Source of the DNA: a virus
Taxonomy: Duplodnaviria > Heunggongvirae > Uroviricota > Caudoviricetes
Virus record (IMG/VR): IMGVR_UViG_2585427750_000018
Location: 1-15,988 of that record
DNA length: 15,988 nt
Reading direction: 5' to 3' (one strand)
The notes under the pieces were generated by a model. It was not told where the DNA came from, ran no database searches, and was given only the letters and a program-made list of their open reading frames with translations. Position 1 is the stretch's first letter; each line of letters begins with the position of its first letter. The translations under genes and the position numbers were made by a program. Positions 5,465-7,124 of this stretch are shown one piece after another.

Positions 5465-7124
5465 ATGATACCTGTATGGAGCACAGCCTGCCCGGACTGG
5501 GCAGAGCGCCTGAAAAAGGGGCTGTCGATTATTCCGGATCCGATTTATCCGGACGAGGCCGCACATGCACTGGCGATTTTTAAACAACTGCGGATTGTGG
5601 ATGCACCTGGTAGCCCGACATTCGGGGAGTCCTGTGCACCGTGGGTGTTTGACCTGGTGGCGGCCCTGTTTGGCTCCTACGATGCGCAGACCGGTGTTCG
5701 CCATATCAAGGAAGTGTTTATCCTTATCCCCAAGAAAAACAGTAAGTCCACGCTGGCCGCGGGGATCATGATGACGGCGCTGTTACTGAACTGGCGGCAG
5801 GCGGCGGGCTACACCATTCTGGCCCCGACCGTGGAGGTGGCGGCTAACGCCTTCAACCCTGCCAGGGATATGGTACGACGGGACGATGATCTGGATGACC
5901 TCTGTCAGGTGCAGACACATATCCGGACCATCACCCATCGGGTGACGGACACCACCCTGAAGGTGGTGGCAGCCGATCCGAATACGGTGTCCGGTATCAA
6001 GTCCGTGGGGACACTGATTGATGAACTGTGGCTGTTTGGCAAGCAGTACAAGGCGGAAGACATGCTACGTGAAGCCATCGGCGGGCTGGCCTCCCGTCCG
6101 GAAGGGTTTGTGGTGTATACGACCACCCAGTCGAATGAACCGCCCGCCGGGGTATTCAGACAGAAACTGCAGTACGCCCGGGATGTCCGCGACGGCAAAA
6201 TTCATGATCCGCACTTTCTGCCGGTGATATTTGAACACCCTCCTGAAATGGTGGAAAGCGGGGCTCACCTGCTGATGGAAAACCTCGCCATGGTCAACCC
6301 GAATCTCGGCTATTCAGTGGATGAGGCCTTTCTGTACCGGGAGTACCGTAAAGCCCGGGAAGCCGGTGAAGAGCATTCCGGGGCTTCATGTCAAAACACG
6401 CCAATGTGGAAATTGGTCTTGCCCTGCGCTCTGACCGCTGGGCGGGGGCGGATTTCTGGGAGAGCAGGGCCGGCGCATCAGCCTGGACGATATCCTGCGT
6501 CGCGCTGATGTGGTGACGGTGGGGATTGACGGCGGAGGCCTGGATGATCTGCTGGGGATGTACGTGACTGGCCGTGACAGGGAGACCCGCGAATGGCTGG
6601 GCTGGGGCCATGCCTGGGTGCATGAAACCGCGGTGGTCAGACGGAAGAGTGAGGCATCCCGGTTTCAGGATTTTGTGGCCTGTGGAGACATGACGATTGT
6701 CCGTCGGGTCGGGGATGACACGGCGGAAGTGGCGGAGGATGTGCGTCGTATTCATGAGGCTGAGTTACTGGATCATATCGGTATTGACCCGTCAGGTGTG
6801 GGGCAGATTCTGGATTCACTGGCGGAAGCCGGGATCCCCGATGAGAGTGTGGTGGGGATAAGCCAGGGCTGGAAGCTGGGCGGGGCCATCAAAACCACCG
6901 AGCGCAAACTGGCTGAAGGGGTGCTGGTGCATGGTGACCAGCCCCTGATGGCCTGGTGTGTCGGCAATGCCCGGGTGGAGCCTAAAGGTAACGCCATTCT
7001 TATCACCAAACAGGCCAGCGGACGGGGAAAAATTGACCCGCTGATGGCGCTCTTCAATGCGGTGTCCCTGATGTCCCTGAATCCGGAACCGAAAAAGAAA
7101 GCGTATGAGGTTTTTTTCATATAA
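5465..7124 (+). CDS. Terminase large subunit (HK97/COG4626-type), apparently interrupted by two -1 frame changes (near 6371-6376 and 6466-6480); possible pseudogene or sequence error
   Basis: N-terminal ATPase region (ORF 5465..6508) and C-terminal nuclease region (ORF 6510..7124, VVTVGIDGGGLDDLLG...IDPLMA) are in different frames. A protein-like bridge (AFRGFMSKHANVEIGLALRSDRWAGADFWESRAG) is found in the third frame between them. Confidence 0.85.

Follow-up and report, generated by a model that had tools for sequence, protein, structure and literature searches.

Has the terminase of this lambdoid prophage been inactivated in the bacterium that carries it, or were its genes broken only when the genome was assembled? 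The question is raised by a stretch of 15,988 bp (hereafter the window), which is the entire contig JOQD01000055.1 of GCA_000713895.1, a 5.28-Mb draft (145 contigs, 5,275,184 bp; sample SRS568234) of the E. coli isolate 3-475-03_S3_C1. This is a fecal isolate from a child in Tanzania (ST328, phylogroup B1, O88:H25), for which 100-bp Illumina HiSeq 2000 reads were assembled with MaSuRCA 2.3.2 (PMC6222053). Because the isolates obtained from the same child were all phylogenomically distinct (PMC6222053), the comparison lacks a clonal sibling. The window comprises a lambdoid late region that encodes, in this order, a holin, a lysozyme, Rz, a TonB_C moron, an HNH protein, the small (TerS) and large (TerL) terminase subunits, a protease–capsid fusion, a portal, a 461-aa protein, head–tail connectors, a major tail protein, the G/T chaperones and the start of a tape measure. 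The contig begins and ends within prophage genes that are often repeated (DUF6645 and the tape measure), and TerL of this kind was found in up to 7 copies per genome, at 2,960 places in 1,255 E. coli genomes.

In homologous loci (e.g., L001 6001-7662, L002, and L003) TerL is a single ORF of 1662 nt encoding 553 aa, and the corresponding region of the window (5465-7124) has 1660 nt. As deposited, the frame is broken twice within 90 nt and both shifts are -1, so that translation and homolog alignment bear out an earlier note on this DNA, which had claimed two -1 frame changes within about 100 bp. The resulting layout is as follows:

5465..6373, plus strand: TerL segment 1, residues 1-303, read in the frame of 5465 and covering the ATPase domain and the first part of the nuclease-domain envelope
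6373..6374, plus strand: lesion 1, one base absent, GAAGAG^CATTCC; intact copies read GAGACATT or GAAGCATT
6376..6462, plus strand: TerL segment 2, residues 305-333 (FRGFMSKHANVEIGLALRSDRWAGADFWE; FRGFMSK...ADFWE), 29 residues in the -1 frame
6460..6463, plus strand: lesion 2, one base absent, CTGGGAG^AGCAGG; intact copies read GGGAAGAGCAGG or GGGAGCAGCAGG
6465..7124, plus strand: TerL segment 3, residues 335-553 and the stop (7122-7124), the nuclease core (GIDGG...) in the -2 frame, beginning QGRRISLDDILRRADVVTVGIDGGG...

The frame of 5465 reads ...YRKAREAGEE and continues through 44 junk residues to a stop at 6506-6508. Re-insertion of one base per site restored a protein of 553 aa with end-to-end matches to PF03354 and PF20441, the packaging ATPase domain (PF03354) lying at residues 63-224 (44.7 bits, cut-off 23.7) and the RNase-H-like nuclease domain (PF20441) at residues 276-535 (34.2 bits, cut-off 24). 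Because the repaired protein matches both Pfam domains, the frame breaks exceed what chance would give. The deposited 347-aa product also matches PF03354, and PF20441 is not on the same polypeptide as the ATPase domain as deposited, lying in two other frames behind the two 1-nt gaps. Both lesions lie downstream of the ATPase core and upstream of the nuclease catalytic core. The closest known counterparts are the intact TerL genes of Stx-converting and related lambdoid E. coli prophages (WP_001303179.1 of strain UTME-14; BCI49349.1 of phage Stx1_132418), which are 97.5–98.0% identical in nucleotides over the whole gene, have the same neighbors (HNH, TerS, TerL, protease–capsid fusion, portal) and share the PF03354 and PF20441 architecture once the two bases are restored; in contrast to them, the window lacks bases at 6373^6374 and 6460-6463 and spreads the gene over three frames.

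The comparison with intact homologous TerL, which had been proposed as a check, fixed the shift points at 6373^6374 and 6460-6463. The first agrees with the position given in the earlier note (gaagag^cattcc), whereas the second had been placed at ccggcg^catc (about 6476) and the true gap lies about 14 nt upstream, so that the residues SRAG, previously taken as protein, are already out-of-frame junk. The proposal of deletions in short G/C runs did not survive the alignment with intact homologs, in which neither site is a G/C run or a true homopolymer. A homopolymer error of the 454, Ion Torrent or nanopore type was likewise rejected, the data being Illumina and the sites not homopolymers.

That both changes are -1 and separate the ATPase core from the catalytic core of the nuclease would suit a TerL expressed through two programmed -1 ribosomal frameshifts, or deliberately split into ATPase and nuclease, and a -1 frame change inside the phage late operon is familiar from the lambda-like tail assembly chaperones (G/GT). 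Unlike G/GT, the TerL sites, GGT GAA GAG CAT (TCC) and TTC TGG GAG AGC (AGG), lack a slippery heptamer of the form X XXY YYZ, and no homolog has the two-frame layout, the approximately 3,000 homologous copies being single 1662-nt ORFs; orthologous TerL proteins naturally split or ending at this point, which would have spoken for such a layout, were thus not what the alignments contained. The possible downstream starts for a separate nuclease are only a GTG at 6510 or an ATG at 6564, the latter past the GIDGG motif. Programmed frameshifting or a split TerL is hardly credible on this evidence and was excluded by the lack of a slippery heptamer and by the single ORFs of the homologs. Elsewhere in the window an A AAA AAG heptamer occurs at 14702-14708, immediately upstream of the stop codon of the tail assembly chaperone gene (ORF 14338-14712) and followed by a Phage_tail_T ORF at 14736-15017; judged by its sequence, it is predicted to be the usual lambda-like G/GT programmed -1 frameshift.

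The small subunit gene is interrupted as well, by a stop codon rather than a gap:

4905..5468, plus strand: TerS, 187 codons in homologs, here cut by an in-frame TAG; matches PF03592; compared with the TerS of L003
5319..5321, plus strand: the TerS TAG; the window reads TAG-AAG, homologs TGG-CGT (haplotype A') or TAT-AAG (haplotype B')
5283..5324, plus strand: TerS alternating zone, 42 nt with 18 informative sites in the order BABBABBAAAAAABABBB and 0 private alleles

The TAG inside TerS that had been reported earlier is real, homologs having TGG or TAT at this codon, and TAG-AAG can be put together column by column from TGG-CGT and TAT-AAG. Among 163 natural copies, the one nearest to the window departs from it at 8 of the 42 positions of the alternating zone, and for 5240-5400 the best match among 5,426 complete E. 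coli genomes reached 94.4%. Across TerS the window carries one of the two haplotypes at every informative site (43/43); these sites form 17 runs, the panel median being 5. The claim that the lesions cluster in the packaging genes and leave the others intact holds for this sequence, as judged by ORF lengths and the absence of any other coding indel: ORFs other than TerS and TerL have the lengths annotated in homologs, and the other approximately 20 genes contain 0 lesions. Indel noise throughout the window was also considered and dismissed, the only coding indels in the whole window relative to the closest complete genome being the two in TerL. The strings of the window that run across the lesions are GGTGAAGAGCATTCCGGGGC, TTCTGGGAGAGCAGGGCCGG, GCGGCCTAGAAGCTGGCG and GAGCCTCCCAGTAACAG.

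Other features of the late region are recorded here in their own right. A terminator-like hairpin with a T-run lies at 7149-7166, directly 3' of the TerL stop and 5' of the protease–capsid gene. Downstream of the portal, the ORF 10696-12081 encodes the 461-aa protein, for which there is no Pfam match and whose exact sequence is on no other contig; it contains a 162-nt tandem repeat (10921-11612, 4.3 copies, 97% identity) that is one unit (162 nt) longer in the window than in strain MB06102, a copy number that, obtained from 100-bp reads, may be unreliable. In the region equivalent to window 9335-12081 (L001 9875-12459, L003 9838-12422), the RefSeq/PGAP annotation of complete genomes treats the portal and the next gene together as a single "frameshifted" portal pseudogene, although the two ORFs, the stop of one overlapping the start of the next, are a conserved arrangement and a portal of 454 aa is annotated in phage records.

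If the lesions were inherited, some relative would be expected to carry them, and a broad search was performed across complete genomes, viral records and metagenomes. For positions 6345-6495, the 5,426 complete E. coli genomes contain 2,936 copies, each 153 nt in length as opposed to 151 nt in the window, and the best identity was 95.4%. Both TerL gaps were found in the window only, the two extra bases being present in 66 of 66 homologous loci from IMG/VR and E. coli records. In the deposited sequence the k-mers that carry the gene lesions are GGTGAAGAGCATTCCGG, TCTGGGAGAGCAGGGCC and GCGGCCTAGAAGCTGG. Lesion-specific patterns gave no true match in IMG/VR, in 241 M metagenome records or among the GTDB species representatives, where the lone match to the TerS pattern was a chance hit in an unrelated Thermoanaerobaculia MAG. 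The flanked TerS combination GCC-TNN-AAG was absent from IMG/VR and the metagenomes, and in a set of about 15 billion proteins the truncated TerS and TerL products came from no contig but this one. A common origin of the lesions by descent was therefore rejected, no carrier turning up in complete E. coli genomes, phage records, IMG/VR, metagenomes, GTDB representatives or by exact-protein look-up.

The same holds for relatives reached through rare proteins of the window. A 108-aa protein with a TonB C-terminal domain (3550-3876), apparently a moron, lies between the lysis genes and HNH, and its allele in the window is rare (indexed in 47 collection blocks; 19 contigs counted). In eight prophages that carry this allele, TerS is intact (187 aa) in 8/8 and TerL is intact or truncated by the contig in seven, the remaining one (L253) having no TerL call. 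A search for an independent Logan assembly of the isolate, or for close relatives via rare proteins of the window, returned only prophages 96–97% identical in which TerS and TerL are intact. The comparison with the prophages of related strains that the earlier note had called for found no shared lesion among the nonclonal sequences available. At the protein level, five consecutive products (TerS, TerL, the 645-aa protease–capsid fusion, the portal and the 461-aa protein; window 4905-12081) were exclusive to this contig in the search of about 15 billion proteins, while each of the 17 other window proteins tested (17/17) was found on 14 to 1,000 or more contigs.

The earlier note had left two interpretations side by side, a packaging-defective and possibly domesticated prophage or localized sequence errors. 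The latter is favored here; the domestication proposed in the former found no support, since no related strain shares the lesions and no sign of selection was seen. Domestication would mean that selection removed packaging and kept the virion genes for a use that benefits the host, for instance as a satellite helper or for a particle or tailocin-like function. What speaks for it is the pattern only, namely lesions in TerS and TerL next to intact genes for lysis, head and tail. The lesions occur in no further strain or lineage, and hence there is no sign of retention; one lesion is enough to stop packaging and three are present; a fourth lesion of the same type, described below, lies in noncoding DNA. 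Because the intact genes are 97–100% identical to those of ordinary, functional-looking prophages, their intactness needs no special selection. We therefore regard domestication as very unlikely.

Sequence comparison around each lesion site revealed that the natural copies fall into two common haplotypes. At lesion 1, haplotype A reads GAAGAGACATTCC, haplotype B GAGGAAGCATTTC and the window GAAGAG-CATTCC; at lesion 2, haplotypes A and B read GGGAAGAGCAGG and GGGAGCAGCAGG, respectively, and the window GGGAG-AGCAGG. Representative A and B TerL sequences differ at 44 of 1,662 columns, of which only 5 differences are dinucleotide, all within 6372-6500, and both TerL deletions are located exactly on two of these five (GA/AG and AG/GC), a coincidence that random sites would produce with a chance of about 1e-4 by rough estimate. 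Such two-base differences can be aligned as an insertion/deletion pair at equal edit cost (GA-GACA over GAAG-CA; GGGAAG-AGCA over GGGA-GCAGCA), and choosing the gap in both columns of these alignments yields the exact sequence of the window at lesions 1 and 2. The flanks of lesion 1 are identical to natural copies over 60 nt on either side. Those of lesion 2 form a second alternating zone, listed below with a noncoding anomaly downstream of the capsid gene:

6447..6503, plus strand: lesion 2 alternating zone between TerL haplotypes A and B, alleles in the order A B B gap A B B B A A A B; here, on the large scale, an A-like donor gives way to a B-like one
9141..9160, plus strand: hairpin after the capsid gene, noncoding, GGGAGGC-GCGA-GCCTCCC^AG; the window reads GAGCCTCCC^AGTAAC

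Every panel copy differs at three or more positions from the 40 nt on the 3' side of lesion 2, and the independent sequence L041 has nearly the allele mix of the window beside this lesion. The hairpin has a unique form, 2 nt shorter than its nearest natural form and than any of 83 panel copies; column by column it blends two common haplotypes between which there is an indel at this point. When 3900-12300 was scanned in 40-mers against the 243-locus panel, nearly all matched with 0 or 1 mismatches, and the strongly deviant zones were the three lesion zones and the hairpin. The window therefore has four anomalies of the same kind, three in genes and one in noncoding DNA.

The spectrum of changes was then compared with that of a decaying gene. 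Apart from the two gaps and a single substitution (6738G), every state of the window in TerS–TerL occurs among 51 natural copies, and this indel-to-substitution ratio is unlike neutral decay: instead of substitutions greatly outnumbering indels and lesions spread over all dispensable genes, TerS–TerL has 2 private gaps and 1 private substitution, with a third private indel at the hairpin. Taking L036 and L003 as parents, all 2,220 nt of TerS–TerL are explained but 3 columns (the gaps and 6738G), and the mosaic requires at least 45 alternations, against at most 27 in other equally well-explained sequences. The few sequences with similar alternation numbers leave 42–66 columns unexplained and are simply divergent lineages. 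Natural copies are themselves fine-scale mosaics, with up to 18–27 alternations in the two-parent test. A global copying-model (Viterbi) test of mosaicism placed the window 5th to 7th of 52, no outlier, and is uninformative when taken alone; in runs tests it came first or second, just past the natural extremes L035 and L041, which may be draft or metagenome chimeras themselves.

These observations also bear on the reading that the lesions are real and that the terminase genes were inactivated in vivo, either by ordinary mutational decay or as a side effect when the prophage recombined, or underwent gene conversion, with another lambdoid prophage in the same cell; in the latter case, heteroduplex DNA spanning regions of dense mismatch would have been resolved imperfectly. 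The lesions are present in the sequence as deposited, lesion 1 is a clean 1-nt loss within a natural haplotype, and the TAG is one substitution away from TGG or TAT. Fine-scale mosaicism is natural in this phage family, including A/B recombinants within 6385-6447, and Illumina assemblies seldom carry indel errors, which counts against an artefact. Inactivation in nature may moreover be common, because about 10% of the natural copies have a TerS or TerL frameshift of their own (5–6 of 51 other copies of the module). The copies in IMG/VR with frameshifting indels are L074/L075 (5962), L057 (5734), L061 (6823, 19 nt), L064 (6799) and L035 (5115), in window-equivalent coordinates; as in the window, small indels break the same genes, but each of these copies has a single lesion per gene at another position, none has three and none shares the lesions of the window. 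Weighing against real lesions, three disabling changes lie within 2.2 kb and 0 in the other approximately 12 kb of equally dispensable coding sequence; all of them, together with the noncoding fourth, fall at adjacent-difference columns of two haplotypes; three private indels are accompanied by almost no private substitution; and none was found in any other genome, virus contig or metagenome searched. Real inactivation is, on balance, a fair possibility and the less likely reading; if it did occur, heads and tails would still be made and DNA packaging would be lost.

A specific in vivo version would have the heteroduplex of co-resident prophages slip at adjacent double mismatches into two 1-nt loops, each repaired to the shorter strand, and such loop repair would produce 1-nt losses exactly at dinucleotide differences. 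Strand-directed long-patch mismatch repair would not be expected to resolve two neighboring loops in opposite senses, and we consider this route unlikely. Were it true, it would be a recombination-driven way for poly-lysogens to inactivate the packaging of one prophage and leave its virion genes intact.

We favor the reading that the gene-breaking lesions are probably a consensus artefact produced by merging two co-resident prophage copies, and that the three gene lesions and the fourth, silent one most likely belong to the assembly and not to the DNA of the bacterium. Two or more lambdoid prophages, a few per cent different in their late regions, are probably present in the isolate, a coexistence that we infer, and MaSuRCA (super-reads passed to the Celera Assembler) would have joined pieces of two copies into one contig. 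Where differences between the copies are sparse, an ordinary-looking mosaic would result. Where differences occupy adjacent bases, an alignment by edit distance may place an insertion/deletion pair instead of two mismatches, and a column-by-column call taking the gap in both columns would lose one base. The same column-wise call on TGG-CGT over TAT-AAG would give TAG-AAG, and an indel difference at the hairpin could give the two-base loss. That the Celera consensus step calls tied columns in this way is presumably so, and its behavior in this assembly is our assumption; a search of the literature on MaSuRCA consensus behavior for merged repeats yielded nothing directly usable.

The known counterpart of this artefact is the merging of diverged repeat copies, such as paralogous prophages, in short-read drafts. 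The window resembles it in being a short-read draft contig bounded by repeated sequence (DUF6645 and the tape measure), and in having anomalies only at columns where known copies differ, each derivable column-wise from two haplotypes; the second copy is here presumed. A merged-copy artefact would account for the uniqueness of the lesions, for their positions and for the excess of indels over private substitutions, and the lesions would cluster in TerS and TerL because these genes hold the densest haplotype differences. Several features pull in the other direction: lesion 1, with its exact 60-nt flanks, also resembles a clean natural 1-nt deletion, L041 independently has nearly the allele mix of the window beside lesion 2, fine-scale mosaicism is natural in this module, and two of the "A-type" picks in TerS (ATC-AAC-ACC) are synonymous, like those of a natural allele under selection.

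Whichever cause applies, it is an ordinary one: the draft contains an assembly artefact, or the isolate has a cryptic lambdoid prophage like many others. If the lesions are real, their sole interest would be the apparent link with recombination junctions. If they are an artefact, as we think probable, then frameshifts and stops in prophage genes of poly-lysogenic E. coli known from short-read drafts would, when they lack read support, be no evidence of decay or domestication, and a quick test for such lesions would be to ask whether each falls on an adjacent-difference column between known paralogous haplotypes.
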